64,000 nucleotides of DNA from an uncultured Clostridia bacterium (GTDB lineage: Bacteria; Bacillota; Clostridia; TANB77; CAG-508), in the NCBI GenBank assembly GCA_944387505.1, contig CALXFG010000001.1, forward strand, positions 81,549 through 145,548. Direction: 5' to 3'. The position numbers and the translations under genes were made by a program. Position 1 is the stretch's first letter; every line of letters starts with the position of its first letter. Shown one piece after another: positions 260 to 41,468 of this stretch. The notes below the pieces were generated by a model. It was not told where the DNA came from. It ran no database searches and saw nothing but the letters and a program-made list of their open reading frames with translations.

Positions 260-2719
260 CTATGAATTTTCTACTTCCTTAATTTCTGGTGCTAATATCT
301 CCATACTAACAACCCTTCCACCGTCGCTTGTTCTCATTAATGTAACCCCTTGTGTTGATCTACCTAAAACACTAATATCTTTTACATTAATTCTAATAAT
401 TGTTCCTGTATCTGTAATTAACATGACATCATCTTCTTCAGATGCAATTCTAACACCAATTAGTTTTCCTGTCTTAGGTGTAATTTTATAAGTAATGACA
501 CCTTTTCCACCTCTATTTTGTACTCTATACTCATCTAATTCTGTTCTCTTTCCAAATCCGTTTTCTGTAATTGCTAATAGTGTTGCTTTTCCTCCGCTAA
601 TTACAGATTCCATTCCGATAACTTCATCATCTTCATCTAGTCTAATACCAATAACACCTTGAGCAACTCTACCAATTGGTCTTACATCTTTTTCATCAAA
701 TGTAATACACATACCATTTCTCGTAACTAAAACTACATTATCTTCTCCATCTGTTAATCTTACACCAATTAATTCATCATCTTCTTTTAGTGTAATTCCT
801 TGTAAGCCAGTTTTTCTAGTAGAATCATATTCTTTTAATGCTGTCTTTTTAATTAGTCCATTCTTCGTTGCCATTAATAAATATTTTCCTTCAGCAAAAT
901 TTTGAATTGGTATAACAGCAGATACTTTTTCTCCTGCATCTAGACTTAATAAATTTACAATAGCTGTACCTTTTGCTGTTCTTCCTGCTTCTGGAATTTC
1001 ATAACCTCTTAAATGATATAACTTACCTTTATTTGTAAAGAATAAAATTGTATCATGTGTTGAAGCTGTAAATATTTGTTTAACAAAATCTTCTTCCCTA
1101 GTTGAAATTCCTGTTATTCCTTTTCCTCCACGTCTTTGGCTCTTATATGTATCAATTGGCATTCTTTTGATGTATCCAAAATGTGTTAGGGCTACAACAG
1201 TTTGCTCTTCTTTAATTAAGTCTTCTACATCAATTTCACCTTCTGCTGCAACAATTTTGGTTTTTCTTTCATCACCAAATTTATCTTTAATTTCTAATAG
1301 CTCTTCTTTGATAATATCATACACTAATCTTTCACTATTTAAAATATCTCTTAAATGTGCAATTAATTCCATTAATTGATTATATTCTTCTTCAATTTTT
1401 TCTCTTTGCAATCCTGATAATGTTCTTAATCTCATATCCAAAATTGCTTGTGCTTGGATATCTGTAAGTCCAAATCTTTCCATCAATCTTTCTTTTGCAT
1501 CATCATAAGAGTTTCTTATAATATTAATAACTTCGTCAATATTATCTAATGCAATTTTTAATCCTTCTAATATGTGAGCTCTAGCTAAAGCTTTATCTAA
1601 ATCAAATTGTGTTCTTCTTAAAATAACATCTTTTCTATGATCTATATAACAATCTAAACATTGTCTTAATGTTAAGATTTTTGGAACTCCATTGACTAAT
1701 GCAAGCATGATAATACCAAATGTTGTTTGCATTTGTGTATGTTTAAATAACTGATTTAGCACAACTTGTGGGTTAGCATCTCTTTTTAATTCTATTACTA
1801 CTCTAACTTTATCTTTTCTATCAGATTCATCTCTACACTCTGAAATACCTTCTACTTTTCTTTCTTTAGATAAATCAGATATTGTTTTAATTAAGTTGGC
1901 TTTATTTACTTGATATGGTAAAGAAGAAACAATAATCCTTTGTCTATTTCCACTCATTTCTTCAATTTCTGTTTCTGCTCTTAAAGTTATTTTTCCTTTA
2001 CCTGTAGTATAAGCTTGTTTAATACCTTCAAGACCTAAGATAATCCCCTCTGTTGGGAAATCTGGTCCTTTAATAACACTCATTAATTCTTCATCAGTTA
2101 CATTATCTTCATCAATAATTTTAATAATTCCATCAATTAATTCTGTTAAATTATGAGGTGGAATATTAGTTGCCATACCTACAGCAATACCTGAAGAACC
2201 ATTTGCAAGTAATGCTGGTATTCTTGCTGGTAAAACAGTTGGCTCTTGTAATCTATCATCATAGTTTGGCATAAAATCAACTGTATTTTTCTCAATATCT
2301 GTTAACATATATTCTGCAATTTTAGACATTCTTGCTTCTGTATACCTCATAGCAGCTGCTCCATCACCATCAACAGAACCAAAGTTACCATGTCCATCAA
2401 TTAACATATATCTCATTGAGAAATCCTGTGCTAATCTAACCATAGCATCATATACGGAACTATCTCCATGTGGGTGATATCTACCTAAAACAGAACCTAC
2501 TGTATTAGCACACTTCCTATATGGTTTATCTGATGTAATACCATCTTCATGCATTGAATACAAGATTCTTCTATGTACTGGCTTTAAACCATCTCTTACA
2601 TCTGGAAGTGCACGAGAAACAATAACACTCATGGCATAGTCAATATATGCTTCTCTCATCTCTTTTTCGATGTCTTTTTCAATTATTTTTCCGTCTCTTC
2701 TTTCTTGTCTTTCTTCCAT
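260..2719 (-). CDS. gyrA: DNA gyrase subunit A
   Basis: 819-aa ORF with the GyrA N-terminal signature ([28 protein letters not shown]) and the C-terminal beta-pinwheel repeats. Confidence 0.95.
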
Positions 2720-2961
2720 TGTTTTCCCTCTCTTCCTTTATATTTCTACCTTTGTATTATACTAAAACAAACCTTATTTTGCAAGTAAAATGCTTAAAAA
2801 AACTAGGGAAATAAATATTTTAGCGTTTTCTTTAAAATACTTTACTTTTCTAGGTTTCTTTTATGAAAAAAATAGTAAAATTATTTTTTATTTTTAATAT
2901 AATTAAATTAATTTTTATATTATATTCTCTCTATATATTTAAATATTTAAATAATTGAATA

Positions 2962-3261
2962 TTAAATATTTGAATTTTCCAAACAATTTAGTATTAAATT
3001 TACACCATCAATAAATCCTTGTTTGTACATTTCTTTATTATATTCTGTTATTTTCATATTATAATTATCTTCTATTTTATTAAATATTTCATTTAATTCT
3101 TTTGCATCATTAGAATTTTTAATGATTTTTTCAAAGTCTATTTTTTTTAATTTATTATTTAAAGTTTCATCAATTTTTTTTAATATTTTATCTATTTTTT
3201 CATCTTGTAGTTGATAAATTATATTTATCATATTTTTTTCTTTATATTTCTTAAAATCCAA
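2962..3261 (-). CDS. Hypothetical protein, K/E/N-rich, predicted coiled coil
   Basis: 99-aa ORF lying within the gyrA-gyrB insertion. No recognisable motif. Confidence 0.3.
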   Translation of the reverse strand: MDFKKYKEKNMINIIYQLQDEKIDKILKKIDETLNNKLKKIDFEKIIKNSNDAKELNEIFNKIEDNYNMKITEYNKEMYKQGFIDGVNLILNCLENSNI

Positions 3262-3521
3262 TTCTTCTCTCCCCTGTTATTTACATGAATCTATACTATA
3301 TTCTTATTATTTATATTAAAGTTTCTTTTTATACTTAAATTTTGTTTTTTTATAAACATATTAAAATTTTATTATTTATTAACATAATATTGTATAATAA
3401 TTAGCAATGTTGTTTTTGTTGGCATTTGCTTTTTGCATATTTTCTTCATACGCTTTCGGTCTGTCGGTTTTTTTAGTTTTTTGTAATATAATGTAAATAA
3501 TATTTTTTTTGAGGTGACATT

Positions 3522-3860
3522 ATGCAAGAAGATTATAAGGTTGGAGAAAGAATTAGAGAAATACGTGAAGGTCTAAATATGAATAGGGAAAAATTTTCAG
3601 AAATGATTGATATTTCAAGCGTTTTTTTAGGTCAAATTGAACGTGGAGAAAGATCTTTAAGTATAAAAACATTATCTAAAATTGTTAAATTCACAGGAGC
3701 TTCTACTGATTATATTCTTTTTGGAAATGATAATACAAATTCAACGATAAATAAAATTAATCGAATTTTAAACAATTGCTCAAAAGAAGGATTAAACTTT
3801 ATTTATGAATTTACTTGTTCTATTAGCACATTTCTAAAAACTGAAAACAAAAAATTATAA
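3522..3860 (+). CDS. XRE-family helix-turn-helix transcriptional regulator
   Basis: N-terminal HTH_3-like segment (REIREGLNMNREKFSEMIDISSVFLGQIERGERSLSIKTLSKI). GAGGTGA RBS 6 nt upstream of the ATG. Confidence 0.7.
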   Translation: MQEDYKVGERIREIREGLNMNREKFSEMIDISSVFLGQIERGERSLSIKTLSKIVKFTGASTDYILFGNDNTNSTINKINRILNNCSKEGLNFIYEFTCSISTFLKTENKKL

Positions 3861-3976
3861 ATTAAAAAGAGGAAATTAAATTCCTCTTTTTTATTAAATA
3901 AAATAAATATATTAAAATTTTCAATAAATTAAATAATTTTTTAATTAAATTAAAATTTTTTATAATTATATTTCAT

Positions 3977-4696
3977 CTAAATTAATTTCTCTGCTAAAGC
4001 TAATTGTTCTTGATTTAAATTAAAATCTTGTCCATTATTTTTAATCAAGTTATGTAAATTTTCTATCGTTCTAGCTTGCGTTATTATTTTCTCTAAAGGA
4101 GCTAAATTATTTAGTACTTTTTCTATTTTACTATATTCTTGTTCCATTCCTTTAAAATTCTTATTATTAAAATTTTCTTTCCAATTATTCATATATTTTT
4201 CAATATTTTCTATTTCAGTATTTTGTTCATTAAATTTTTGTTCTATATTATTTTCTATACTATCTAATATAATGTTTTTCCCCTGTTTAATTGTGTTCGC
4301 AATATTATAATTTATAATTCCTTTTTCATTTACTTTATTAACAACTGTATCCAATAATGAAGAAATTCCATCTAATAAACCTCCTGCTTGTATAGCACTT
4401 TGCATTTGTGAAACATTTTCAAAATTACCTGTAAAAATTCCAATTGCGCTTTTTCCAAGTTCTATAGCATCATCTATTGATTTAGTAATTCCGTCTTTTA
4501 AACCGTAATTTAATAAATTATCTTTTATATTTATAATCTGTTCATCAATAAAGTCAGGTAATAAAGCTCTTATTCCAATATCTATACCTGCATTTATTGT
4601 TTTACCTAATGTAGTTTCTAAAAAATTGGTTTGATCATTATTATTAATCATTTTATTATCTAAATTTACTTCATTTTCAATTTTATTTATTTCCAT
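3977..4696 (-). CDS. Hypothetical protein (239 aa, N/I/E-rich, probably alpha-helical)
   Basis: Long ORF with normal coding composition, divergent from the XRE gene. No conserved motif recognised. Confidence 0.4.
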   Translation of the reverse strand: MEINKIENEVNLDNKMINNNDQTNFLETTLGKTINAGIDIGIRALLPDFIDEQIINIKDNLLNYGLKDGITKSIDDAIELGKSAIGIFTGNFENVSQMQSAIQAGGLLDGISSLLDTVVNKVNEKGIINYNIANTIKQGKNIILDSIENNIEQKFNEQNTEIENIEKYMNNWKENFNNKNFKGMEQEYSKIEKVLNNLAPLEKIITQARTIENLHNLIKNNGQDFNLNQEQLALAEKLI

Positions 4697-4699
4697 ATG

Positions 4700-7540
4700 C
4701 CACCTCTTTTTCTTTTATATTTTTTTATTTATATTTATAACTTACTATTTTAATTAAATTATTTTATTTAATTTATTTTATTTAATTTAATTTATTTTAT
4801 TTAATTTATTTTATTTTTAATTTTTTTATTTAATTTATTTATTATTTATTATTATTTTTTATTTGTTTTTATTTAATTTTTATATTAATTTAATATTTTT
4901 TTATATTTAATTATTTATTCAAGATTCTATTTTAAATATACTCTTAATCCATAAAGTTAATTCATATTTTTTACTCTTTATTTTTCTATTATTTTTGTTG
5001 TTGAATTATGTTGACTTTTAAATTTACAATATTATTTTCTCCCACAAAAGCTTTAATTACAGTCTTTTTTAAGGTTTTTATTTCTATTTAATTTTATTTT
5101 TTAAAATTACAAAACTAAATTTTTTCCTTAAATAAATATTTAAATTTTTCTTTATTAATATTAATTTTTTACAACACTATTTTTTAATATAAAATTATTT
5201 TAATTCATTTTTAAAATGCTGAATTATTTAATTTCATGGTTCGTTTTTTTATTTATATATTTTATATTGATTATTAGTTATTTTTAACTTAAATATTTAA
5301 TAATAACTTTTTCAAATTTTTTAATTCTTTTTATTATTTTTTTATTAAATATATTATTTTACTTAATTTATTTGATTTATTAATTTTTTACATTTTTAAC
5401 ATTTTATATTAATTGTTTTTTTGATATTAATTTTTAATATTTAATTTTTATAATAATTAATTTTTCCATTTCACATTTAATAATTTTTTATTTCTTTTTT
5501 TGATCTAAACTCAGAAATTTATTTCAGCATTTTTAGTCTTTTTAATTTTATATTATTTCAATTTTAATTTTTTAATTTATCCTTTATGTTAATTTTTAAA
5601 ATTACTAATTTAGAAATTCTTTTTCCTTAAAAATCCTTAAATATGCGATATATTTTTAGATTCTTCATTAATTTTTTGTAAAATTTTATTTGTTTTATAA
5701 AAAATACTTATTTTTAATTTTTAACTTATAAAATGTTTTTTCACTAAATATTTTTTTCTTCTTATTTTTAAATTATTTTACAAATTAATTTTGTTATATA
5801 AAATTATATTTATAAAATCTTTAAAGTTTATTTGTTATCATTAAGTTTTATTTTTTTATTAATTATTTAATTATTATTTTTTATTAATATTTATTATTAG
5901 TTTATTTTATTTTTTATTTTTTTATTTAAATTAAATTTTTTTTAATTATTACTTATTTTTTTATTTTATTAATATTTATTTATATTATTTTATATATTAA
6001 TTAAATTTTAATTTTTTTTTTATATTTTATTTTTATATTTTATTTTTATATTAAATTATTTTATTAATATTTATTTTTTATAATTTATTTTATTTAAATT
6101 GAAAAATTAATTTATTTTTCTATTATATTTTATAATTGTAATTTTGAGATAATTTATTTAAGTTATGTTGACTTTTATTTTTTCAAAACATCTTTAATCC
6201 TGCAATTTTCTGGTTCTTTTAGAATTTATTTTTAATTTTAAGCATTTTATTAAATAAGTTTTTTTATTAAAAATTTTTAAATTATTTATATTTAATTTCA
6301 TTTTTTTGAGATTTTAATATTAAATTTTATATTCGTTTAATTTTAAAATGTTTTATTTTCAATTTTCGTGTTAGCGTTTTATAATTAAATAATTTATTAT
6401 TTCTTTTGTCATTATTTTTTTATAAATTCTTTATAATTTTTACCTTTGTTTTTAATAATAATTATTAATTAATTTATTTATTATTTATTATTTATTATTA
6501 ATTTATTTTATTGTTTTTTTATTTAATTAATTTTTTTCTTTAATATTTTAATTTAATTAATTTTATTTTTTTATTTAAATTATTTTTTTATTTAATTACT
6601 TTTACTTTTTTTAATATTAATTATTTATTTTTTTACTTTTTATTATTACTAATTGATAATTTATTTTTATTTAATAATCTATTATTATCTAAGAATAAAA
6701 ATAAATTATCTATTTATACATTTATATTTTCTATTTTAACTCTTTATATAAATCTATTTTAGTTATGTTAACATTAAAAAAAATCTCTTTATTTCAAGCA
6801 TTCTCAATTACACAAATTTCTATGCTTATTTGTATTTTTTATTATTTTTATAATATAGTTTTACTTAAAAAATGAAAATTGTCCTTTTTTTATTATTATA
6901 TTTCATTTTTTTCTATTTTAAATTTATTTTATTAATTATGATAATTTATATTAATTTAATTTTAAAATGTTTAATTTTTGATTTTCGTATTTTGTTTTTT
7001 TGTATAAAATATTTTATATTTTGTTTTTACTTTTATCTTTAATTTTTATTAATTATTTTATTATTTAATTAATTTTATTAATAATTAATTTTTACAATTA
7101 AAAATCAATTATTATTTATAATATTTTATATATTTTTTATTAATTAAATTTTTAAAATTCTTATTTTTATTTTTAATATTTTTTAATAATTAAAATATTA
7201 TCTTTTTTATATATTAAATTATTACTAATATTCTATATTTTTTTATTATTAATTAATAATCTATTCTTAATAATTTTATTAAGTTAAATATTTTAAAATT
7301 TATTTACTTTTTTTCTTTGTTTGATTGAGTCTCTTGATCTATTTATTTTTCTTTATGTATACATTCCATTTTTCTTCTATAAAATCCCTAATCATTAATT
7401 TTACTGATTATACTAATCTTTATATAAATTTTTCACATATTTTTTATCTAGAAAATGTTAACTTTTAATTTTTTTATTCTTTTAATTCTTTTATTTTTTA
7501 TTTATTGGATTTATTTTATTAACTTTAAATTGTTTATTTT
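4700..7540. repeat. 2.8 kb of essentially A/T-only non-coding DNA made of degenerate ~600-bp repeat units
   Basis: The anchor AGTTATGTT(G/A)AC recurs at ~5008, ~5585, ~6163, ~6761 and ~7456. Each copy is followed ~200 bp later by AAAATG..TT..(G)ATTTTCGT(G/A)TT (at ~5215, ~6340, ~6965). Confidence 0.6.
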
Positions 7541-8556
7541 TATACTAAATTAATTATTTTGATTTTTTTAAATTTATTTTTCAATATTATTTTATAAAAA
7601 TATTTTGATATATTATTTTTATAATAATTTATTAATATTAAAGATATTTTTTTATTTTTTATTTTATTTTTATATATATTTAATAAATTTCTTTTATTAT
7701 TTTCTAAAATAAGATAATTTTTATTTTTCAATTTTAATGGAAGTATATTAATCTTTTTTATTGAATAATTAAGATTAAATATTATATAATAATTATTTTT
7801 TATATATTGTTTAATTATTTTTTTTATTATTTTTATTTTTACTAAACTATTTCTATTTTTTAATATTGAATTTATATTTATTATTTCTTTTATATTTTTA
7901 TCTATTATTTTTTCTTTTATTGTATAATTTTTTTTCATTATTAAATAATAAATATTTTTTGTTTTATTTATTTTCGATATTTTTTTATTTATTTTCTTTT
8001 TATTTTTTATTTTTAAATTAATATTTATTATTTTTCTATTTTTTATAATTAATTTTTTTTCAATTATTAATTTAATTATTTTTTTATTAATTTTGTCATC
8101 TCCAAAGATACATATAATATTATTTTCATCTTTGATTCGTTTTTGTTTTTTTAATTTAAATATTTTATCTTTTATCTTAACAATATTTCTTTTTAGATTA
8201 ATAATATTATTTCCTTTTTCTTTTAAACTTTTAATTAATTTATATGTACTAAATATATTATTGTAATAAATATCTGTTATATTTATTTTATTTAATTTTT
8301 CTTTTATTTTTTTATTTTCTAATATTATAATTATTTTTATTTTTTTATTTATTCTTTTAATATTTTTTAATAATTTAATTAAATTAATTTCTCCTGGAAT
8401 GCTTTCACTAATTATAATAATATTTATTTGTTTATCTTTTTTTATTGTATCTATAATTGCTTCTCTATATAAAATATTTTTATTATCTACTAATTTATTT
8501 TTTTTTATTTTTTTTAATATATTTTCTTCTGCTATAGCTGTTATAATTTTAGTCAT
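7540..8556 (-). CDS. Low-complexity K/I/N-rich ORF (338 aa); possible decayed gene belonging to the T4SS remnant
   Basis: Continuous ORF, but its composition mirrors the AT-only DNA it sits in. The N-terminus (MTKIITAIAEENIL...INIIIISESIPGEINLIKLL) looks protein-like, the remainder low complexity. Its start overlaps the upstream VirB4-like gene by 8 nt. Confidence 0.25.
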   Translation of the reverse strand: MTKIITAIAEENILKKIKKNKLVDNKNILYREAIIDTIKKDKQINIIIISESIPGEINLIKLLKNIKRINKKIKIIIILENKKIKEKLNKINITDIYYNNIFSTYKLIKSLKEKGNNIINLKRNIVKIKDKIFKLKKQKRIKDENNIICIFGDDKINKKIIKLIIEKKLIIKNRKIININLKIKNKKKINKKISKINKTKNIYYLIMKKNYTIKEKIIDKNIKEIININSILKNRNSLVKIKIIKKIIKQYIKNNYYIIFNLNYSIKKINILPLKLKNKNYLILENNKRNLLNIYKNKIKNKKISLILINYYKNNISKYFYKIILKNKFKKIKIINLV

Positions 8557-10318
8557 TCTTTATGTCTCCTTTTACAATTTCTAATTCTTTATCAGAACAT
8601 TCAATTTTTGTTAATATATGATCCTCACCTACAAACATTAAGCATTCTCCTCTTTTTAAAGATTTTATTTCTACCTTTTCTTTTTCTGATAAATTAGCAA
8701 ACTCTGATAATACTTTTATATTTTCTTCTTCTAATGCAAAGAAAGTTTTGATGCTAGAATTATTTAAAATACTTTTTCCATAAATTCCATCTTCTAAACT
8801 AAATAAATCTGAAATATCCTGCGTTATGGCTACACTACTTCCTCCATATTTTCTAATTGTTTTAAATATTTTATAAATAAAACTCGCTACATTTTTATTA
8901 GATGTTACCCCTATTAATCTCCATATTTCATCTAAATAAATTGCTTTTTTTTCCTTTCTATTTTCTTTTATTTTATCCCAAAAAATATCTGTAAATAAAT
9001 ACATTCCATATTTTAAATTTTCTTCTCCTAATTCATAAATATCTGCAATAATTAATTCATTTTTTAATTCTATGTTTGTATGATGATTAAAAAATTTCAT
9101 TGATCCTTTTACAAATGGAATTAATTTGATAGCAAATTTTTCTGTTTTTTTATCTTTTTTTAATTGTTCATATAAATCTTCTAATATTGGCATATCTTTT
9201 TTATGTTTAAATATCATTTTTTTATTTTCTTTTTTATATAAAGATTTATCATCAAAATTAATATTTTTTTCTTTATACGTTTCAATTAATTTTTCTTCTA
9301 TTAAGGCTTTTTCTTCTTCGTTTAATTCTCCAAAAATTAAATTAAAAAATCCAATTAATTTTGCAATCTTTGTTGCAAGATATCCATTTTCTCCATCTTC
9401 TATACTTTCTTTTCTAATCTCTAATATATTGATATATGTATTAGAATTCGGTCCTATAATAATTCTCGTACCTTTTAAATTATCACTTATGTTAACATAT
9501 TCTCTCTCTGGATCTATTATATATTGTTTAATTCCCATTAGCCTATATCTCAAAATTAATAATTTGGTATAAAAAGATTTTCCCGCACCACTTGTACCAA
9601 ATATACATATATTAGCATTTTTATATTTTTGTGTATCATATCTATCTATAAACACAAGTGAATTATTATATATATTTGTTCCAATAAATACTCCTTCTTT
9701 ATCAAATATAGAAGATGAAATAAATGGATATGTGGATACAAGACTAGATGTTAGAATATTTCTTTTTGCAACATTTTTTACTAGTGTATTATTTTCCATT
9801 ATTGGTAAACAACTTTTGAATAATTCTTCTTGTCTAAAATTTGCTCTTCTTGTTTGTAACCCTTTACTTTGTGATATCCCTTCAATTTTACTAATTAAAT
9901 ATTCTAATTCTTTTATATCTTCTGCATAAACTAATAGATATATATATAAATAATAAATCTCTTCATTATTTACTTGCATTTCTTTTCTTATGTATTTTGC
10001 ATCTCCATATATGGATGTAGCTATATCAATATCTTGCCTATTCTCATGATTATTTTTTACTTCTAATCCTACATTTCCTATATGATAAGTCAATTCTTTT
10101 ATGACTCTATACGAATCTTGTTTTTCATAAAACATAGAAATATTCAAATTTATGTTACTTTCTATTAAACTTTTTAATATGATATCAGTTTGTTCTCTAT
10201 AATAATCTATAATCATTATTCCTGTATAATATGTATTATCTATTTCTATATATTTTGGATTTTGAAAATTGATATATGATGGAGAAATTTTATCTTTTTC
10301 AAATATTGTTCCTTCCAA
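8549..10318 (-). CDS. VirB4/TcpF/TrsE-family T4SS ATPase, second divergent and shorter copy
   Basis: Walker A FGTSGAGKSFYTKLL and Walker B IYLDEIWRL. Collinear similarity to the 650-aa VirB4-like protein at 34000-35952, including the N-terminal region and the A/B boxes. Confidence 0.7.
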   Translation of the reverse strand: MEGTIFEKDKISPSYINFQNPKYIEIDNTYYTGIMIIDYYREQTDIILKSLIESNINLNISMFYEKQDSYRVIKELTYHIGNVGLEVKNNHENRQDIDIATSIYGDAKYIRKEMQVNNEEIYYLYIYLLVYAEDIKELEYLISKIEGISQSKGLQTRRANFRQEELFKSCLPIMENNTLVKNVAKRNILTSSLVSTYPFISSSIFDKEGVFIGTNIYNNSLVFIDRYDTQKYKNANICIFGTSGAGKSFYTKLLILRYRLMGIKQYIIDPEREYVNISDNLKGTRIIIGPNSNTYINILEIRKESIEDGENGYLATKIAKLIGFFNLIFGELNEEEKALIEEKLIETYKEKNINFDDKSLYKKENKKMIFKHKKDMPILEDLYEQLKKDKKTEKFAIKLIPFVKGSMKFFNHHTNIELKNELIIADIYELGEENLKYGMYLFTDIFWDKIKENRKEKKAIYLDEIWRLIGVTSNKNVASFIYKIFKTIRKYGGSSVAITQDISDLFSLEDGIYGKSILNNSSIKTFFALEEENIKVLSEFANLSEKEKVEIKSLKRGECLMFVGEDHILTKIECSDKELEIVKGDIKND

Positions 10319-10374
10319 AATTTTTAAATTTTTTTCATTATTTTTTCTATTCAGTATTTTTTTTAATTTAATTT

Positions 10375-10890
10375 TTATTCCTCCTCTAATTGATTATTTT
10401 TATTAAAATATTTTTTTGTATTAAAAAATGAAAAAAATATTTTTAATATTTCTTCTTTTTCATCAATATTATTTACTTTATTTCCACATCTAGATAAACA
10501 TTCTTTTATTTTTAAATATTTTTCATTTAATTCTTGTTTAATAATTTCTATATTTTTTTCTTTTTTATTAATTGGATGATTCTTGATAATAATATAAAAT
10601 TTTTTAGATGACGATTTTTTATTATTATTTAAATTAGAAATATATTGAATATAATTTTGAGTTAAATTTTTTAAATATTTATTTTCTTTTTTATTAATAT
10701 TTTTTTTTATTTTGGAAATATGATGAGTTAAATCTTCTTTATTACTTTGAATTAAAATTTGAATATCAAAATGACAAGTTTTAAAAAAAAGTTTATAGGA
10801 ATTTAAAATAGCTCCTTTTTCTAAATCTGATTTTAAATTATAATTTATGGGTGTAACTTCTAATATTTTTATATATGTATTGTTTTTCAT
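10375..10890 (-). CDS. Hypothetical T4SS-associated protein; truncated paralog of the gene upstream of the main VirB4
   Basis: Its segment ...IKILEVTPINYNLKSDLEKGAILNSYKLFFKTCHFDIQILIQSNKEDL aligns with IIRKKGKQFIMVIECQGVNYDLMSGLEKNSVEQGFLQFLNTLRYPIQLYIQTRTV in the 385-aa protein at 32830-33987. Gene order is the same, upstream of a VirB4. Confidence 0.4.
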   Translation of the reverse strand: MKNNTYIKILEVTPINYNLKSDLEKGAILNSYKLFFKTCHFDIQILIQSNKEDLTHHISKIKKNINKKENKYLKNLTQNYIQYISNLNNNKKSSSKKFYIIIKNHPINKKEKNIEIIKQELNEKYLKIKECLSRCGNKVNNIDEKEEILKIFFSFFNTKKYFNKNNQLEEE

Positions 10891-11880
10891 TTCTATAACA
10901 CCCTCATTAAAAATTTGGCTAATTGGTATCCATTCTTGGACAGTTTGATTTTTAATTTTTTACCACTCTCCTTTGAAAGCATTTTACAGTCTTTTTTTAT
11001 TTTTGTCAAGAAAAATTCATCGACATAATTCGACTTTTTTTGTTTATGTAATTTTTTAATATATATTTTTTTTACTAAATTTACAATTATTTTATTTGAT
11101 TTTTTTTTTATCTTTTGTTATTTATTATCTTATTAATTTATTTTTTATATTTTATTTAAAATTATTTTTTTATTTATTATTTTTTATTAATTTAATTTTT
11201 AATTAATTAACTTTTTTATTTCATATTTTTTTATTTATATTATAATAAATTATTATTTTAATTAAATTATTTTATTTTTTATTATTATTATTTTATTTTA
11301 TTTTTTTATTATTATTTTATTTTTTTTTATTATTATTTTATTTTATTTTTTTATTAATTATTTATTTAAATTAATTATTTTATTTTACCTTTTATTTTTA
11401 ATTATTTATTTAATCAATTTTTTTCGATTATTCTTTTTATATTTTTTTGAATATTTTTTTTATTTTTGAACATAATAAAAATGTAAGGTTAATAATAGTT
11501 AAACGAAGAATGATAATAGATGATTTTATTCATTTATTATCATTCGAGCAAAAATGTAGTATGGTGTTTTATTATATTGTACTATGTCGGCGATGTGAAT
11601 ATATTACTTGTTTGTATGCTGTATTTTTATTTTATTATATTTTTTAATTTATGGATTATGGTAAAATAATATGTAATATATTTTAGTTAAGATTATTCTT
11701 ATATTTTTTAATGATTAATACTAGTCCATTTATTGGATGAATTTAGTTGTTAGTAGTGTATTAATGGTCGAGTGAATGATGAATATATGTGGTCGAAAGT
11801 TTATGCATATAGTAATATATGCTAGATTTGAAAATTATGTATATTTGTTTTAGCAGAGATTATTATTAGCTTTATTGATT

Positions 11881-11920
11881 AAAGGCAGATAATATTTTTA
11901 TTATCTGCCTTTAAATTTTT
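11881..11920. terminator. Rho-independent terminator hairpin directly downstream of gyrB
   Basis: AAAGGCAGATAA-TATTTTTA-TTATCTGCCTTT followed by an A/T run. The gyrB stop is at 11924 on the minus strand. Confidence 0.6.
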
Positions 11921-11923
11921 AAA

Positions 11924-13852
11924 TTAAATATCTAAGTTTCTTACATATTTTGCATTTTGTTGAATAAATTCTCTTCTTGGCTCTACTTCATCTCCCATTA
12001 ATAATGTAAAAATTTCATCAGCTTTTTGAGCATCGTCCATTGTTACTTTTATAAGAATTCTTGTTTCTGGATTCATTGTTGTATCCCATAATTGTTCTGG
12101 ATTCATTTCTCCTAAACCTTTATATCTTTGTAGTGATAATGAGTCTCTTGTAATTCCTTTTTCTTCTAATTCTTTATATGCTTTTTCCAAATCGTCATCT
12201 GTATAACAATATCTATCTTCCATTCCTTTTTTAGACAATTTATATAATGGTGGTTGTGCTAAGTAAACATTTCCATTCTCAATTAAAGGTCTCATATATC
12301 TAAAGAAGAATGTTAATAATAAAGTTCTAATGTGTGCTCCATCAACATCGGCATCTGCCATGATGATAACTTTTCCATATCTAATTTTTGTAATATCAAA
12401 TTCTGCACCAATTCCAGCTCCAATGGCAACAATAACTGGATTTAATTTGTCATTTCCATATATCTTATCTGCTCTAGCTTTTTCTACATTTAACATTTTT
12501 CCCCATAAAGGTAAGATTGCTTGGAATTTTCTATCTCTACCTTGTTTTGCACTACCACCTGCAGAGTCTCCCTCAACAATATATACTTCACATTCATCTG
12601 CATTTTTACTACTACAATCAGCAAGTTTTCCTGGTAATGTAGATGTTTCTAAATTACTTTTTTTTCTTACTAATTCCCTAGCTTTTCTTGCAGCTTCTCT
12701 AGCTCTTGATGCACTAATACATTTTTCTAATATTGCTTTTGCAACTGATGGATTTTCTTCTAAAAATGTAGATAAAGCTTCATTTACCATACTTTGTACA
12801 ACACCTGTTACTTCACTATTTCCCAATTTGGTTTTTGTTTGTCCTTCAAATTGAGGTTCTTTTACTTTTACAGATACAACGGCTGTTATTCCCTCTCTTA
12901 TATCTTCACCTTGTAAATTACTATCTTTTTCTTTTAATATATTGTGGCTTCTAGCATAGTCATTCATAACTTTTGTTAAAGCTCTTTTAAATCCTTCTAA
13001 ATGTGTTCCACCTTCAATTGTATTAATATTATTTACAAACGTATATATATTTTCTGAATAACTAGATGTATATTGTATAGCAATTTCTACTGGTACTTCT
13101 CCATCTTTTTCTATATAAATTGGTGTTTTATGTAACTTTTCTTTATTTTTATTTAAATATTCTACAAAAGATACTAAACCACCTTCATAACAAAATTCAG
13201 ATTTTTTAGGTGTTTCTTCTCTTTGATCTTCTATTGTAATTTTTAAACCTTTTGTTAAAAATGCTATTTCTCTAAATCTCTTTTCTAATACTTCAAACTC
13301 ATAATCTAAACTTTCAAAAATAGTATCATCTGCTAAAAATCTAACTTTTGTTCCTGTTCCTTCTGCATCGCCTATTCTTTCCAATTTTTTAACAGTCTTT
13401 CCCTTTTCAAAAGACATTTGATAAAGTCCGCCATCTCTTTTAATCGTTACTTCTGCCCATGTAGATAATGCATTTACTACAGAAGCACCAACTCCATGTA
13501 ATCCTCCTGATACTTTATATCCACTATCTCCACCAAATTTTCCTCCAGCATGTAATACTGTATATACAGTTTCTGCTGTTGATATATGTGTCTTTGGATG
13601 TATTTCTACTGGTATTCCTCTACCATTATCTGTTACACAAATAACATTTCCTTTTTCTATAACAACATTAATTTCTGTACAATATCCTGCTAATGCTTCA
13701 TCTACACCATTATCTACAATTTCATAAACTAAATGATGAAGTCCTCTAATAGATGTACTTCCTATATACATTCCAGGTCTTTTTCTTACGGCTTCAAGTC
13801 CTTCCAATACTTGTATTTGTTCTGCGCCATACTTATGATTATATTTTTCCAT
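11924..13852 (-). CDS. gyrB: DNA gyrase subunit B
   Basis: 642-aa ORF with the GHKL ATPase N-terminus and the TOPRIM/C-terminal motifs ([32 protein letters not shown]). Confidence 0.95.
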
Positions 13853-13864
13853 TTGTGTCTCCTC

Positions 13865-14947
13865 CTAAAACTCTTGATTTTCTTTTCTAACTTTTCCGTC
13901 TTTTACATTATATATTAAAATATTTTTATTTTCAAGCTTTATTTTATCTGTACAAGTGATAATTACTTGTATATTTTCAATTTTTTCTAATAAATGTTTT
14001 CTTCTTTTTTCATCTAATTCTGACATAAAATCATCTAATAATAATATTGGATACTCTCCAATTTCATCATATACGATATCTAGTTCAGCCATTCTTAAAG
14101 ATAAAATTGCCGTTCGATGTTGTCCTTGAGATCCATATGTCCCTAAATCTTTATTATTTATAGATATTGTAAAATCATCTCGATGAATTCCTTTTGTTGT
14201 ATATCCTTTTATAATATCTAACTTTCTTCTTTCTTTTAATAGTTTCCTATACTTTTCCTTATCTTCACAATCTGTTAGATACTCTATTTTTAATTCTTCT
14301 TTATTATCTGTTATTTCTTTATGGATTTTTATGATTTTTTCTTGTATCTTTTTTATAAACGCTTTTCTATACTCACATATTTTTTCTGCATATTCTATTA
14401 ATTTTTCATCCCAAATATCTAATAAATCTTCATTTTTATTTTTTTCTCTAATTTGTCTTAAATAATTATTTCTTTGTTCAATTGTTTTTAAATATAAATT
14501 TAAATTGTACATATAATTTGGTTTTAATTGACTTATCATAATATCTAAAAATCTTCTTCTATTTTGAGGTCCACCTTTTAAAATATGAATATCATCCGGG
14601 GTAAAAATAACGACATTTATGTTTCCTAATAATTCACTTAATTTTTTTAATTTAATTCCATTTAAAAATATATTTTTTTTCTTTGCTAAATCAATTTTTA
14701 TTTTTCCACATCTATCAGATTTTTCGTAAAAAATTTCTACACTCGCATTTTCTTTTCCAAGTCGTATCATCTCTATATCTTTTTTAGCCCTAAAGGATTT
14801 TCCCATACTAGATAAAAAAATACTTTCGATTATATTAGTTTTCCCTTGTGCGTTTTCACCATAAAATATATTTAAATTCTTATTTAATTCAATCTCTTCG
14901 TTTTCATAATTCCTAAAATTGTTTAAAATTATTTTACTTATCCACAT
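13865..14947 (-). CDS. recF: DNA replication and repair protein RecF
   Basis: Walker A GENAQGKTNIIESI and the C-terminal LLLDDFMSELD signature. The probable true start is the MWISKI methionine; the listed ORF extends 4 codons further upstream. Confidence 0.9.
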   Translation of the reverse strand: MWISKIILNNFRNYENEEIELNKNLNIFYGENAQGKTNIIESIFLSSMGKSFRAKKDIEMIRLGKENASVEIFYEKSDRCGKIKIDLAKKKNIFLNGIKLKKLSELLGNINVVIFTPDDIHILKGGPQNRRRFLDIMISQLKPNYMYNLNLYLKTIEQRNNYLRQIREKNKNEDLLDIWDEKLIEYAEKICEYRKAFIKKIQEKIIKIHKEITDNKEELKIEYLTDCEDKEKYRKLLKERRKLDIIKGYTTKGIHRDDFTISINNKDLGTYGSQGQHRTAILSLRMAELDIVYDEIGEYPILLLDDFMSELDEKRRKHLLEKIENIQVIITCTDKIKLENKNILIYNVKDGKVRKENQEF

Positions 14948-14959
14948 ATTCTTCTCCAT

Positions 14960-15846
14960 TTGTGTATAACTTTATTATTTTTTTATTTTCTTTTATTTCT
15001 ATTTTATTCTTTTTTTTACTATTTTTTCTAAATTTTCTTCTTATTTTTTTATATAAAATTATATTAATAAAAAATAAAAATGGCTTATTTTTGATTTTCG
15101 TGCTTTGTTTTTTTTTATTTTTTATTATTTTTTTATTATTTTTAATTTATTTTTTTTTTCTTATTTATTTTTAGATATAAAATTATATTATAAAAAAATA
15201 AAAATGGCTTATTTTTGATTTTCGTGCTTTGTTTTTTTTATAATTTTTATATTTTTTATATTTTTTATATTTTTTTATTATTTTTTATATTATTAATTTT
15301 TATAAATAATAATTAATATTTATTTTTATGAATATTAATTATCTGTTTTTGTAAAATATTTTTTATTATTTAATATTAATTTTTTAATTAATTAATTTTA
15401 TATTTATAGAATTTTTTATTAATCGAATTATTTATTTTATTTTTTAATTAATTAATTTTTTACAATTTTTTTTTATTTATTAATTAGATTTTTTCTTATA
15501 AATTTTTTGATTCTTTTCTAAGTAATTATTTTTCTATTTTTATATTTTTTTCAATATTACTTTATCTCTTTTTTTCTATTTTATTCTTTTTTTTACTATT
15601 TTTTTCTATTTTTTTCATTTTTCTATTTTTATTATTTTTTATTTTTATTCAAATTCTTTTATATTCTTTTTTTTACTATTTTATTCTTTTTTTTACTATT
15701 TTTTTCTATTTTATTTAAATTTGCTTTTTTTGTGATTTTTATTTATGTTAAAAGGTTTATCTTTTTATTTTATATTCTTTATCCACAATCTTTTCATAAA
15801 AAGTGGATAACTATAAAAAATATTAAAGGTAGAAATACTTCCACCT
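14960..15846. repeat. AT-only repeat-rich spacer between recF and dnaN
   Basis: Contains a ~124-bp tandem duplication (15049-15240) with core ATAAAATTATATTA.AAAAAATAAAAATGGCTTATTTTTGATTTTCGTGCTTTGTTTTTTT. The motif ATTTTATTCTTTTTTTTACTATTTTTTT occurs four times (about 14996, 15575, 15640, 15670). Confidence 0.6.
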
Positions 15847-16989: not shown

Positions 16990-17330
16990 ATAATATTTTT
17001 AGTAGTAATAGTATTAGGCATTGTGGAAACTGTGGAAAACTATGTTGATAGTTACAATCCCTAGTAAAATTACTGTTTATAATTTAGTGGAAAACTTAGA
17101 AAATAATCCACATCCTTTTGTAACAATTGTGTAAAAATGAGTTATAAACAAATTCTTAACAGCTTATTAACAGGATGCTGTGGATATTCTTTTTAGCTAT
17201 TCCGTAAGAATAGAAAGATTCTTTTTTTAAGAACAAACTTTCTATCAAACATAAATTTTAAAAATGTATTTTCAATGTGCAAATTTCTTATTGTTTTCCA
17301 TTTATAATTATATTTTTCACACTATCCACA
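16990..17330. promoter_or_regulatory. oriC part 2: DnaA-box cluster between dnaA and dnaN
   Basis: TGTGGAAAC/TGTGGAAAA at ~17023-17040, GTGGAAAAC at ~17091, TGTGGATAT at ~17175 and TATCCACA at ~17311, with AT-rich flanks. Confidence 0.6.
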
Positions 17331-18640
17331 ATTAATTTGGTATTGCTTTTTTCTTTTACTTCTTTTTCTATTTTTTTACAAGCATGCATAACTGTAGAAT
17401 GATCTCTTCCCCCAAAGTCTACTCCTATCTGAGGAAAAGACATGTTGGCAATTTCTCTACAAAGATACATGGCAATTTGCCTTGGAAAAGCAATATCATT
17501 TGAACGTTTATTTCCTGACAAATCATCTTTGTTAATACTAAAATATTTTGCAACCGTTTCTTTTATAAAATCACAAGAAATGACTTTTTCACTTTCATAT
17601 TTGAATTCATTAATAATATTTTCTGCAAGTTCTATAGTGATTGGACTATGTATTAAAGATGCTCTTGCAACAATCTTATTAAATACACCTTCCAATTCCC
17701 TAATGTTTGAATCAATTTTATTAGCTATATCAGATAAAATAAAATCATCAATTAAAATGTTTTCGTCTTGGGCTTTCTTTCTTAAGATAGCTAAACGTGT
17801 TTCATAATCTGGGCAAGAAATATCAGCCAATAATCCCCATTCAAATCTAGATTTTAATCTATCTTCTAAAAATTGAATATCTCTTGGTGGTTTATCACTA
17901 GATATGATAATTTGTCTTCCATCTTCATATAAAGAATTAAATGTGTGGAAAAATTCTTCTTGAATACGTTCTTTTCCTGCTATAAATTGAATATCATCTA
18001 TTAAAAGAACATCTATACTTCTGTATTTATTACGAAAAACTTCGTTTTTATTATCTTTTATGGCATTTACTAATTGATTGGTGAATTTTTCTGAAGTGAC
18101 ATATAATACATTCATTTTATTATTGTTTTGTAAAATTCGATTTCCAATAGCATGCATTAAGTGTGTTTTTCCTAGTCCAACACCACCATATAAGAATAAT
18201 GGATTATAAGCTTTTCCTGGTTCATTTCCGACAGCTAAAGCTGCTGCATGAGCAAAACGGTTACTATTTCCTACAACGAAAGTTTCAAAAGTATATTTTG
18301 GATTTAATGTAGATTTATTGAGTTCTACTTCTTCAGGTGAATTAGAATTAGATTTATCTTTAATCACAACTTCATCATTTTGTTCTTCTTTTGATAAATC
18401 AATAACAGAAAAAGTCCAATCTTTATTGGTTATATAACGTAATGTATTAAAAATTAAACTTCTATATTTATTTTCTATAAAATCTTTTTGAAATTCTGAA
18501 ATTGTTGTAAAAACAATATTATCACCATCAATACTTCTTATGTCTAAAGGCAAAATCCATGTATCATAAGATATTTTTGTTACTTCTGGTTTTAATAGTT
18601 CTTTTATTTTTGCAACTAATTCTTCTTTATCGATTGCCAT
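17288..18640 (-). CDS. dnaA: Chromosomal replication initiator DnaA
   Basis: AAA+ Walker A GGVGLGKTHLM and the C-terminal DNA-binding domain. The true start is most likely the MAIDKEEL methionine at 18640. The listed 15-codon N-extension (MWITLWITL) is a read-through of two TTATCCACA DnaA boxes. Confidence 0.93.
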   Translation of the reverse strand: MAIDKEELVAKIKELLKPEVTKISYDTWILPLDIRSIDGDNIVFTTISEFQKDFIENKYRSLIFNTLRYITNKDWTFSVIDLSKEEQNDEVVIKDKSNSNSPEEVELNKSTLNPKYTFETFVVGNSNRFAHAAALAVGNEPGKAYNPLFLYGGVGLGKTHLMHAIGNRILQNNNKMNVLYVTSEKFTNQLVNAIKDNKNEVFRNKYRSIDVLLIDDIQFIAGKERIQEEFFHTFNSLYEDGRQIIISSDKPPRDIQFLEDRLKSRFEWGLLADISCPDYETRLAILRKKAQDENILIDDFILSDIANKIDSNIRELEGVFNKIVARASLIHSPITIELAENIINEFKYESEKVISCDFIKETVAKYFSINKDDLSGNKRSNDIAFPRQIAMYLCREIANMSFPQIGVDFGGRDHSTVMHACKKIEKEVKEKSNTKLIVDSVKNIIINGKQ

Positions 18641-18659
18641 TTCATCATCCCTTCTTTTT

Positions 18660-18900
18660 AAAGTTATCCACAAAGTTATCCACAAATGTTGATAATATTG
18701 TAATATTTCTGTAATGAATCCGGTTTTTTATACGAACAAAAATTTAAGTATTTTCAACAAAAAATGAATATTTTTTATGCTTTTCATATCATAACAAAAT
18801 TATATAAAATAAGTCAATACAATTGTGGAAAAAAATTTTTAATTGTGGAAAACGATATAAAAAACTGTGGAAAACTAAGGCTTTTTTACAAAAATATTAC
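18660..18900. promoter_or_regulatory. oriC part 1: DnaA-box cluster upstream of dnaA
   Basis: Two perfect TTATCCACA boxes at 18664-18672 and 18677-18685. Three TGTGGAAAA boxes at 18824-18876. Confidence 0.7.
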
Positions 18901-30476: not shown

Positions 30477-30673
30477 AAACAATATAAAGTATCAGCACTT
30501 TATATTATTTTTTTGTCAAAATTAATCGAATGTATATTTACAAAAATAATTTTTTGTATTAAGATAGAAGTGGTTTATTATAAAATGTATTGAAAATTCT
30601 AAAAAAACAAGGTATAATTAAATTATATAGTAAATGGAATAAGATATATTTTATAATGATAGGGGGTTGGAAG

Positions 30674-31039
30674 ATGAAAATCAATAAAAAGAAGTTAATT
30701 GTGCTAATGATTGTTTTTATGTTATGCATTCTTTTAATAAATCAAGTACAAGCAGCAACGTTTGACCCGAATCTTTATAAACCAGGTTCAACCTCTAGTG
30801 TAATTGGAGCATCAAAATTGGAGAAAATAGGAAATAAGGTTATTGGAGTTGTACAAGTTATTGGATCAATATCTTCTGTAGTAGCAATAGTAGTTATTGG
30901 TATAAAATATATATTAGGAAGTGTTGAAGAAAAAGCAGAATATAAACAAACATTAAAACCATATCTTATTGGAGCAATATTAGTTTTTGGAATATCAAAT
31001 GTTTTAAGTATTGTTCAAAATATCATAGGAGAGTTCTAA
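30674..31039 (+). CDS. VirB2/TrbC-like T4SS pilin, paralog 1
   Basis: Signal peptide followed by two hydrophobic helices. Shared core VIGSISSVVAIVVIGIKYILGSVEEKAEYKQTLKPYLIGAILVFG. Start is the ATG at 30674 with an AGGGGG RBS; the listed ORF starts upstream of that. Confidence 0.7.
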   Translation: MKINKKKLIVLMIVFMLCILLINQVQAATFDPNLYKPGSTSSVIGASKLEKIGNKVIGVVQVIGSISSVVAIVVIGIKYILGSVEEKAEYKQTLKPYLIGAILVFGISNVLSIVQNIIGEF

Positions 31040-31063
31040 AAAAGAAATGGAAGGAGGAAATAT

Positions 31064-31462
31064 ATGAGAAAAATAATAATCTTTATATGTATCTTAAGTC
31101 TATTTCTTGTCGTGATATATCCAAAAAATGTATATGCTATGTCATCATTGGATGATATATTGACCAAAGCAGATGACTTTTTAAGAATAGATGGAGGAAC
31201 GCAATCAACAGGGAATAATACACTTGGAGTACTTGCAGATCCAGATTTAAAAAATACATCTGATTTTTTATATAATACATTACTAGGAATTAGCATGATT
31301 GCAGCAGTTATTGTAGGAATGGTGTTAGGTATTAAATATATGTTAGCAACTTCAGAGGAAAAAGCTGATTTAAAACAAACATTACCAGCATATATTGTAT
31401 CTTGCATTGTTGTATTTGGAGCTTTTTCAATATGGAAACTGCTTATAAATATTATTCAATAA
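31064..31462 (+). CDS. VirB2/TrbC-like T4SS pilin, paralog 2 (most divergent)
   Basis: Signal peptide; core GIKYMLATSEEKADLKQTLPAYIVSCIVVFGA. Confidence 0.65.
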   Translation: MRKIIIFICILSLFLVVIYPKNVYAMSSLDDILTKADDFLRIDGGTQSTGNNTLGVLADPDLKNTSDFLYNTLLGISMIAAVIVGMVLGIKYMLATSEEKADLKQTLPAYIVSCIVVFGAFSIWKLLINIIQ

Positions 31463-31475
31463 GGAGAATAAATAA

Positions 31476-31832
31476 ATGAAAAACAGAAAATGTTTAAAAA
31501 TAATATGTATCATTGTTATATTTAGTATAGTATTATCAATGATTTTTTCAAAAGAAGTAGATGCATTTGCTTTAAGTGATTTAACTGGAAATACACATGG
31601 AACATCAGAAATAAGCGATATGGGAAATAAAGTTGTACAAATTGTTAGTACAATAGGTTCTATATTATCTGTAATTGTTATTATTGTTTTAGGAATAAAG
31701 TATATGACGGGGAGTGTTGAAGAAAAGGCAGAATATAAGAAAACAATGCTACCATTTCTAATAGGCGCAATATTTATATTTGCTGCATCACGTATAGCAA
31801 ATATGGTTTATCAAGTTGCAATAAATATGTAA
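31476..31832 (+). CDS. VirB2/TrbC-like T4SS pilin, paralog 3
   Basis: Core IVSTIGSILSVIVIIVLGIKYMTGSVEEKAEYKKTMLPFLIGAIFIFAAS. Confidence 0.7.
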   Translation: MKNRKCLKIICIIVIFSIVLSMIFSKEVDAFALSDLTGNTHGTSEISDMGNKVVQIVSTIGSILSVIVIIVLGIKYMTGSVEEKAEYKKTMLPFLIGAIFIFAASRIANMVYQVAINM

Positions 31833-31909
31833 ATGTGCTATAATAAAAAGGAAAGGAAAATATACGAATCCTAAACTACAATCGAATATTAATAAAAGGA
31901 GGAAGGGGT

Positions 31910-32263: not shown

Positions 32264-32489
32264 TAAAAATAAGGAAAATAGAGCATGGTTGTAAAAACCA
32301 TGTTTTATTTTTTTATTTTGTTTCTTCCTTTTTTAGAAATTACATAATGCAAAAAAATATTACAAAATCATTACAGTCAAATTACAATATAATTAAAAAT
32401 GTTTTTTTTTGTATATATATGTACTTTTAGGGCGGTTTTATGTTATAATTATATATAAGTGGAATTGTATGTAAAGGAGTGAAAAACAA

Positions 32490-33987: not shown

Positions 33988-33999
33988 GGAGGAAAGAAA

Positions 34000-36138: not shown

Positions 36139-36145
36139 TACTATT

Positions 36146-36427: not shown

Positions 36428-36431
36428 TAAT

Positions 36432-38966: not shown

Positions 38967-39076
38967 TATAAAAGGGAGGAACTATATGATTATCTGTTAC
39001 ACAAGTGAAAATTTGTGATCATATAGTTTTTTCTTTAATAAAAACAGATGAAAATATCTATATCAAGGAGGATTTT

Positions 39077-40462: not shown

Positions 40463-40478
40463 ATAAAGGAGAGGTCAA

Positions 40479-41447: not shown

Positions 41448-41468
41448 TACAAGTAATAGGAGAATTGT

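Follow-up and report, generated by a model that had tools for sequence, protein, structure and literature searches.

In several conjugation systems of monoderm bacteria, the VirB4 ATPase of the type IV secretion system (T4SS) is encoded in two pieces, one small piece homologous to the VirB4 N-terminus and, after it, the body of the ATPase, as seen with TrsD and TrsE of pGO1 and pSK41, TraD and TraE of pIP501, and the CD1110 family. Within the pGO1 subclass, TrsD is remotely homologous to the VirB4 N-terminus according to PMC12102498, which also reports a chromosomal, relaxase-less, origin-proximal MPF-FATA T4SS in Patescibacteria, and cites one experimental study in which the T4SS cluster was found to be essential for epibiotic growth. 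Here, a stretch of 64,000 nucleotides (hereafter the window) from an uncultured Clostridia bacterium (assembly GCA_944387505.1, contig CALXFG010000001.1, positions 81,549 to 145,548) was analysed, in which a split VirB4 of this kind and two partner genes lie between gyrB and gyrA. This gyrB–gyrA interval is very probably a conserved functional operon and not a decaying remnant. Its parts are of known kinds (a TrsD-type split VirB4, a ParA/MinD-type protein and an XRE regulator); new in the literature searched is the arrangement, in which an orphan motor and two partners occupy a fixed place between gyrB and gyrA in a clade of Clostridia that has a Patescibacteria-like, origin-flanking T4SS. 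Literature searches on orphan VirB4 proteins and on TANB77 returned nothing useful.

The minus strand of the window carries, in order, dnaA (17288–18685), dnaN, recF, gyrB, an interval of about 9.2 kb and gyrA. GC skew turns at about 19 kb in the window, which marks this region as the replication origin (oriC). Both gyrase genes and all open reading frames (ORFs) listed in the original prediction were found where it had placed them, with gyrB ending at 11924 and gyrA starting at 2719, and the usual adjacency of the two genes is broken here as it had claimed. Side-by-side gyrB and gyrA are the rule for other Clostridia and Bacilli; in more distant Clostridia gyrA usually lies 10–100 bp past gyrB, and the cluster was found in none of those examined. 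Contigs from two independent metagenome assemblies are 100 % identical to the window across 11.4–12 kb, so the interval is not an assembly artefact. Source records hold no names for the four cluster proteins. The cluster, its signals and its flanks are as follows.

11924–13852, minus strand: gyrB, upstream flank of the interval
11034–11020, minus strand: direct repeat GTCGAATTATGTCGA, just upstream of the cluster promoter
11009–10981, minus strand: cluster promoter TTGACA-17-TAAAAT, near consensus and conserved, within 10981–11034
10375–10953, minus strand: TrsD-like protein; ATG-initiated ORF at 10375–10890 (171 aa), likely start ATT at about 10953 (about 192 aa)
8549–10318, minus strand: VirB4-type ATPase p589 (589 aa), the C-terminal three quarters of a CD1110-family VirB4
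7540–8556, minus strand: p338 (338 aa), a degenerate ParA/MinD-like protein with a receiver-like N-terminus and the Walker A motif lost
3977–4696, minus strand: p239 (239 aa), conserved, all-helical, always directly upstream of gyrA in relatives
260–2719, minus strand: gyrA, downstream flank of the interval

The p589 protein carries the Pfam domains P-loop_TraG (E 9e-19), AAA_10 and DUF87, and the Walker A (GTSGAGKS) and Walker B (YLDE) motifs of its C-terminal FtsK/HerA-type P-loop domain can be read in its sequence. It matches the solved VirB4 C-terminal domain (PDB 4AG5, E 1.5e-42), aligns with positions 188–730 of 752 in the NCBIfam model conju_CD1110 (E 4.7e-91), and has more than 120 homologues at 78–100 % identity. 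Alone it reaches 306 bits against the conju_CD1110 cut-off of 325, with the TrsD-like protein, encoded separately, accounting for the first 180 positions of the model. In L087, the orthologue of the 171-aa ORF covers positions 1–180 of 752 in that model (39 bits) and matches the NCBIfam TrsD/TraD model NF041427 with E 3.4e-10 and 40 bits, below its cut-off of 200 bits. A precomputed PF26593 (TraC-like) match is held by the small protein of the window and equally by a 385-aa protein that precedes a 650-aa VirB4 in a separate module, referred to here as the main T4SS. Model coverage and the shared PF26593 match indicate that the cluster pair and the main pair each amount to a single VirB4 that is divided at the same position, in the manner of pGO1/pSK41. 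Pairwise alignment bore out the proposal of a second VirB4-like ATPase (26 % identity to the 650-aa protein over 521 residues, E 1e-42), and the upstream proteins, which stand in the same order before the ATPase in both copies, are 28 % identical over 97 residues (E 1e-9). The 171-aa protein had been taken for a truncated paralogue of the 385-aa one; the relationship holds and the truncation does not, orthologues being 165–205 aa long (56–90 % identical) and the protein an ordinary TrsD-like piece. Its gene lies 56 bp upstream of that for p589. Translation probably begins at the ATT near 10953, 9 nt past GGAGAG, because the 21 residues upstream of the ATG are kept in frame in all relatives (KNQTVQEWIPISQIFNEGVIE) and a stop lies two codons further up.

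The plasmid VirB4 proteins closest to p589 come from Oscillospiraceae, are of the conjugative type and are 33–36 % identical; the nearest plasmid carries a PrgI-VirB4 fusion and a VirD4. Since p589 is nearer to these than to its neighbour (26 %), the two VirB4 motors of the window are either old paralogues or separate acquisitions, and an ultimate mobile-element origin of the ATPase is likely given that its nearest plasmid relatives are conjugative. Unlike the pGO1, pSK41 and pIP501 systems, the pair in the window is chromosomal, fixed between gyrB and gyrA, and without an adjoining relaxase, coupling protein, VirB3, VirB6, VirB8 or hydrolase; profile searches found no relaxase, coupling-protein or integrase domains among the interval proteins and no VirB3/PrgI, VirB6 or hydrolase partners within 2720–11923. 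A further difference is that a ParA-like and a helical protein follow VirB4 in the window and are absent from the plasmids compared. This second, orphan TrsD–VirB4 pair with two partners offers a concrete handle on the workings of repurposed systems of this kind. A defence system was considered and is not favoured, as p589 matches PADLOC mad8 (E 6e-22) and DndH through the shared P-loop only and far more weakly than it matches VirB4; the PADLOC models gave no match for its partner genes. The Rickettsiales rvh T4SS, known from the work of Gillespie et al., is reportedly comparable in that a reduced genome carries T4SS genes in several chromosomal islets together with a duplicated, diverged VirB4. 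That system is said to be of the diderm P-type, unrelated in sequence and without a ParA-like or p239 partner.

The closest gyrB matches come from uncultured gut 'Clostridia/Clostridium sp.' metagenome-assembled genomes (83–92 % identity), and the next-best ones from other Clostridia, at no more than 69 %. Wherever the contig of a relative was long enough, the genes for the TrsD-like protein, the VirB4 ATPase, the ParA/MinD-like protein and p239 were present between gyrB and gyrA in the same order, which is held down to 42 % identity for VirB4 and 29 % for p239. Three of the loci (L098, L102 and L104) were reached by probing with distant members of the p239 family, and p239 occupies the same position in them at 29–33 % identity.

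L002: cluster genes of 191, 608, 370 and 242 aa
L028: cluster genes of 165, 611, 398 and 239 aa
L081–83: same cluster as the window
L084–86: same cluster as the window
L087–89: same cluster as the window
L090–93: same species as the window, same cluster
L098: p239 30 % identical; ParA-like gene with intact Walker A; gyrA directly after
L104: same arrangement; gyrB 84 % identical
L102: VirB4 42 %, TrsD-like 32 %, p239 29 % and gyrB C-terminus 61 % identical; cluster fully compact

Recurrence of the same genes in the same order, including in the distant L098, L102 and L104, indicates that the insert is ancient and vertically inherited. The cluster occupies the same site in all relatives examined, as a mobile element would not, and only a 1.2-kb cassette with an XRE gene and a 99-aa ORF varies. 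L084, a long-read contig containing frameshift errors, appears to have a disrupted TrsD-like gene; this was set aside, the gene being intact in L085 and L086. Where a textbook gene pair is interrupted, the DNA between the two genes can be an ancient acquisition under selection rather than junk.

Selection was assessed from ratios of nonsynonymous to synonymous substitution rates (dN/dS), calculated by the Nei–Gojobori method for the window against relatives.

ATPase (589 aa): 0.05–0.13
p239: 0.09–0.24
TrsD-like: 0.25–0.35
p338: 0.37–0.54
gyrB: 0.03–0.08
recF: 0.08–0.21
dnaA: 0.04–0.07

These ratios indicate that the ATPase evolves at the pace of a housekeeping gene, comparable to recF and dnaA, and that both the ATPase and p239 are under strong purifying selection. 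Pseudogenes would show ratios near 1, frameshifts and stops; in the window the frames are intact, with p338 partly relaxed.

The p338 gene had been described as a K/I/N-rich ORF dissolving into A/T-only DNA. Its composition is extreme (8.8 % GC; 65 % I+K+N), Pfam gave no match for the window protein, and the Walker A site reads GDDKINKK; the loop is also gone in L002. Orthologues in L028 (398 aa), L098 and L104 (417 aa) keep GxxGxGKS and match CbiA/ParA/AAA_31 and MinD structures, the MinD matches being weak (E ~0.002), and sizes in the family run from 197 to 417 aa. When the bases of the gene were shuffled 5000 times, no frame exceeded 97 codons, against the 338 observed. In this sublineage p338 no longer has a nucleotide-binding loop and is degenerating, yet its frame is still maintained; the original impression of a dissolving gene was half right, the ATPase function being lost here and the protein kept. 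The ATPase gene shares 8 nt with p338, an overlap that suggests coupled translation and is kept in L084–86. TadZ/CpaE-type ParA proteins of the Tad pilus likewise combine a receiver-like N-terminus with a MinD/ParA domain beside a secretion ATPase; unlike in Tad systems, where the ATPase is of the CpaF/VirB11 type, the partner of the ParA-like protein here is a VirB4, and the window copy of that protein has no Walker A.

Almost all of the best 120 matches to p239 are exactly 239 aa long, and the family amounts to 476 clusters at 50 % identity. Profile searches of Pfam, PHROGs, PADLOC and PDB gave no family match for p239, and longer members, possible fusions, held no informative domain. No clear transmembrane segment was seen by eye. 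An AlphaFold2 model built from 15 sequences is all-helical with a mean predicted local distance difference test (pLDDT) score of 54, too poor for a fold search. Upstream of the operon, the repeat GTCGAATTATGTCGA stands at the same position in L004, L005, L081 and L087.

The main T4SS (30590–45089, plus strand) is also origin-proximal, about 20 kb from the cluster on the other side of oriC. It follows gidA-gidB-parA-parB-DUF4446 and two tRNA-Ser genes, and encodes four VirB2/TrbC-like pilins, PrgI/VirB3, the 385-aa TrsD-like protein, the 650-aa VirB4, an 844-aa VirB6-like protein and a 1206-aa cell-wall hydrolase with M23 peptidase and lysozyme domains; profile searches of the ORFs at 30.6–45 kb showed no relaxase. 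The module is in the same place in a relative with a 93 % identical VirB4, and the best 120 matches to its VirB4 are 88–100 % identical; by these comparisons it is a core chromosomal system and not an integrative and conjugative element. In a relative, the main T4SS and the cluster are probably on the same contig (for P0068 as for P0484, the longest contig listed measures 155,838 bp). A very common clade of uncultured gut Clostridia has relaxase-less T4SS genes on both sides of oriC. The sole described parallel found is that of Patescibacteria, whose parts list in PMC12102498 is the same (an array of VirB2-like pilins, PrgI/VirB3, TrsD, VirB4 and a VirB6-like protein) and whose T4SS is likewise relaxase-less and near dnaA, rpmH, gidA and parB. 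Unlike Patescibacteria, the organism of the window groups with Clostridia by gyrB, and term searches of PMC12102498 gave no second TrsD–VirB4 pair of the same clade and no gyrB–gyrA insertion.

Between gyrB and the operon, a candidate structured RNA that the original prediction had not noted was detected, for which the following features were defined.

11448–11476, plus strand: RNA promoter TTGAAT-17-CATAAT, conserved
11482–11917, plus strand: candidate structured non-coding RNA of about 435 nt, convergent with gyrB
11879–11914, plus strand: terminator hairpin, used by gyrB from the other side

The segment 11434–11915 is 71–80 % identical across relatives (blastn), and its alignment consists of long invariant blocks and length-variable loops. 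A closing stem (11483–11500 with 11858–11875) encloses five long hairpins, with GAGC(N)AAGA ahead of each. The RNAalifold consensus on the plus strand reaches -135.6 kcal/mol with 149 pairs, 55 of them compensatory and 44 of these outside the terminator, compared with -25.9 kcal/mol and 51 pairs on the minus strand. In the named structure 97.2 % of alignment cells are paired, against 88.3 % in shuffles (0 of 500 reach it) and 34–47 % in slid registers, with a covariation score of 0.336 against 0.167. Because the structure comes from these very sequences, its contrast with slid registers is inflated; neither the strand asymmetry nor the finding of 44 compensatory pairs outside the terminator depends on this. 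With a sequence profile, one copy was found per locus, always between gyrB and the TrsD-like gene, in 17 sources made up of the window and 16 loci, and again in L104 and seven other loci from metagenomes. The same profile found none in L028 or L102 and no match in viral contigs; the RNA belongs to the subclade whose gyrB is at least about 84 % identical. Rfam scans of the window and four relatives, by gathering threshold and by E-value (up to E 5), gave chance-level matches only. A 21-bit match to group II intron domain V lies on the minus strand and was dropped because the RNA is on the other strand. The block is best described as a well-supported new candidate family that has no Rfam family, a large structured candidate at a fixed genomic address. 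The 'ornate' RNAs OLE, ROOL, GOLLD and raiA are likewise long, many-helix, covarying, non-coding and clade-restricted; unlike them, the RNA of the window is 22 % G+C, rich in G-U, built with five similar hairpin modules and confined to a single locus after gyrB.

The A/T-only stretch noted in the original prediction is real and tandem-repetitive, and similar spacers occur nearby.

4697–7539, no strand: A/T-only low-complexity spacer between p338 and p239, 7–9 % GC, with four short islands holding some G+C
11035–11440, no strand: second A/T-only spacer, in the gap between gyrB and the operon, 4.4 % GC, with no equivalent in L004
14960–15846: A/T-only spacer in the dnaN–recF gap, 8 % GC

On the gene strand the first spacer is strongly A-rich and full of imperfect short-period tandem arrays. 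The p338–p239 gap is only 10–334 bp in L002, L028, L084–86, L102 and L104; L081 has 2.2 kb there, and L088 (ATPase 91 % identical) over 4.5 kb. Because the flanking genes are 10–334 bp apart in relatives without it, the spacer is a later addition and not ancestral. The longest spacer of this kind seen is at L088 3536–8105, at least 4.5 kb past the ParA-like gene without a called gene (12.5 % GC). In the 64-kb window, stretches of at least 150 bp in which 100-bp windows fall below 10 % GC occur only within 2826–15731. The dnaN–recF gap measures 2.4 kb in L081; in the window, it holds a 124-bp unit repeated 2.3 times at 15033–15320. These spacers are probably fast-expanding, unconstrained intergenic DNA under extreme A/T pressure. 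Reaching 4 % GC, varying between strains and confined here to dnaN–gyrA, they show how far unconstrained DNA can run.

In the explanation favoured here, which is regarded as probable when taken as a whole, an ancestor of an uncultured, very A+T-rich clade of gut Clostridia would have acquired a four-gene operon between gyrB and gyrA, since inherited vertically within the clade. The TrsD-like protein and p589 would together form one split VirB4 of the monoderm conjugation type (CD1110/pGO1-TrsD subclass), followed by the ParA/MinD-type gene in its 8-nt overlap with the ATPase gene and lastly by the 239-aa helical protein. Later, the XRE and 99-aa cassette would have been inserted ahead of the gyrA promoter in this species, and kilobase-scale A/T-only spacers would have expanded in intergenic gaps. 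The split VirB4 might serve as a second motor or assembly ATPase for the main relaxase-less T4SS, and its partners, the ParA-like protein and p239, would have a positioning or adaptor role. This specific link between the cluster motor and the main T4SS is offered tentatively and is the less probable part of the explanation. It is one of co-occurrence only, since the cluster has no membrane or channel component and the main T4SS has a split VirB4 of its own. Several other points weigh against it or against the operon: the repeat GTCGAATTATGTCGA was not found upstream of the main T4SS; no ParA-like or p239 homologues were found beside the nearest plasmid VirB4 when neighbouring genes were compared, and these two proteins may not be T4SS parts at all; the model of p239 is poor; and in L104 the VirB4 orthologue (6758–8519) lies in two reading frames with a break near 7117–7149, which, in a short-read Logan assembly, is either a real loss (a pseudogene in that lineage) or an assembly error. 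If the cluster were instead a self-contained machine apart from the main T4SS, a VirB4/HerA-type motor with a ParA-type ATPase and p239 would serve a chromosome-linked task (DNA handling, segregation or import near oriC) and be co-expressed with gyrase. The constant position between gyrB and gyrA with p239 directly before gyrA, an own promoter and conserved upstream repeat not shared with the main T4SS, the lower identity between the two VirB4s (26 %) than between p589 and a plasmid VirB4 (36 %), and the fact that ParA/MinD-type proteins are not parts of known monoderm T4SSs would all fit. However, no VirB4 protein is known to act in the absence of membrane partners of the VirB3/VirB6 type, of which the cluster has none, p239 shows no clear transmembrane segment by eye, and the ParA-like partner has lost its ATP-binding loop here while the ATPase gene is kept; a separate machine, the main rival, is considered improbable. 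The original prediction saw in the interval the remains of an older T4SS element in decay. On this reading, a conjugative or T4SS element would have inserted itself between the two gyrase genes and would now be decaying by neutral drift. A cluster without channel, relaxase or coupling protein, a ParA-like gene of variable size that has lost Walker A, an ATPase whose nearest plasmid relatives are conjugative, and extreme A/T-only DNA around it would suit a wreck, but the synteny comparison of the gyrB–gyrA junction found the same insert with intact genes in relatives. The low dN/dS of the ATPase and p239, the gene order constant across lineages down to 42 % VirB4 identity, the intact motifs, the conserved overlaps and the lack of pseudogene traces in the A/T-only DNA also speak against decay, and this reading of the cluster as a wreck is largely refuted and retains very little probability.

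The 2.8-kb spacer might instead derive from dissolved inserted genes or a mobile element, and not from slippage-driven intergenic expansion. In favour of this, four islands with residual G+C, near 5000, 6160, 6760 and 7450, share the motif AAAGTCAACATAA; island 1 resembles the -10 and ribosome-binding site of the cluster (GACTGTAA...GCTTT...GGAGA) and its upstream repeat, and a real insertion, the XRE cassette, adjoins the spacer. The island match to the repeat, however, was equalled in 6 of 100 shuffles and is not significant alone. The pseudogene traces that had been expected did not appear: tblastn of 25 cluster, ParA-like and T4SS proteins against 4697–7539 gave at best 52 bits, with 44–66 bits for shuffled controls, and no open frame on the gene strand exceeds 39 codons. 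At this junction, the spacers of relatives have hardly any sequence in common, those of L081 and L088 sharing just two or three trivial G+C-containing 12-mers each with that of the window, and blastn of the A/T-rich islands against relatives gave low-complexity noise only. Similar spacers stand at dnaN–recF and gyrB–TrsD with sizes that vary between relatives, and a third contig of the same species differs from the window solely by a few substitutions and by indels within the spacer. Dissolved genes are therefore a doubtful source of this DNA, expansion being preferred. The block at 11482–11917 could similarly be a DNA-level or leader element, either protein-binding repeats or a 5' leader of the operon on the minus strand. 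Five copies of the GAGC(N)AAGA-type motif, the location upstream of the operon and a minus-strand promoter-like match at 11599–11571 would agree with this. Yet the consensus fold is five times more stable on the plus strand, many G-U pairs would become C-A mismatches on the other strand, indels fall in hairpin loops, conserved -35/-10 blocks and a terminator bracket the block on the plus strand, and 44 compensatory pairs lie outside the terminator, so a leader or DNA element is very unlikely and an RNA gene is favoured. A broader scenario would join the cluster and the RNA in one origin-proximal apparatus, a conjugation-derived T4SS repurposed for a host- or partner-dependent lifestyle in reduced-genome gut Clostridia, convergent with Patescibacteria; the second TrsD–VirB4 motor would give a distinct substrate or direction (e.g. 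import) and the RNA would act as scaffold, regulator or cargo. This scenario is speculative and is given only a slight chance.

Within island 1, a copy of GTCGAATTATGTCGA with two mismatches lies at 5000–5014 on the plus strand, in the opposite orientation and beside the -10/ribosome-binding-site-like sequence; it could be a duplicated promoter fragment or chance. The islands were also compared with the TrsD 5' region as possible copies of it, and the alignment was unconvincing. The remaining features of the interval lie next to gyrA.

2801–3976, no strand: species-specific insertion of 1.2 kb, between the p239 stop and the gyrA promoter
3864–3891: hairpin terminator in the XRE cassette
3522–3860, plus strand: XRE regulator (112 aa), HTH_3 E 5.5e-12
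2962–3261, minus strand: 99-aa ORF, divergent from XRE
2756–2784, minus strand: gyrA's own promoter TTGCAA-17-TATAAT, identical in L084

Profile searches gave no protein family and no phage match for the 99-aa ORF, and the pair could be a small regulatory or toxin–antitoxin-like cassette. In L084–86 the distance from p239 to gyrA is 82 bp, and the flanks in the window align to that junction on both sides of the insertion. Past gyrA, L084 (8771–13965) and L085 (7441–12723) carry DnaI-like and DnaB_2 genes and then a TraG/VirD4-like coupling-protein gene, and L081 has other genes there. From the gene order of this sister lineage, coupling-protein genes may also lie near the origin.

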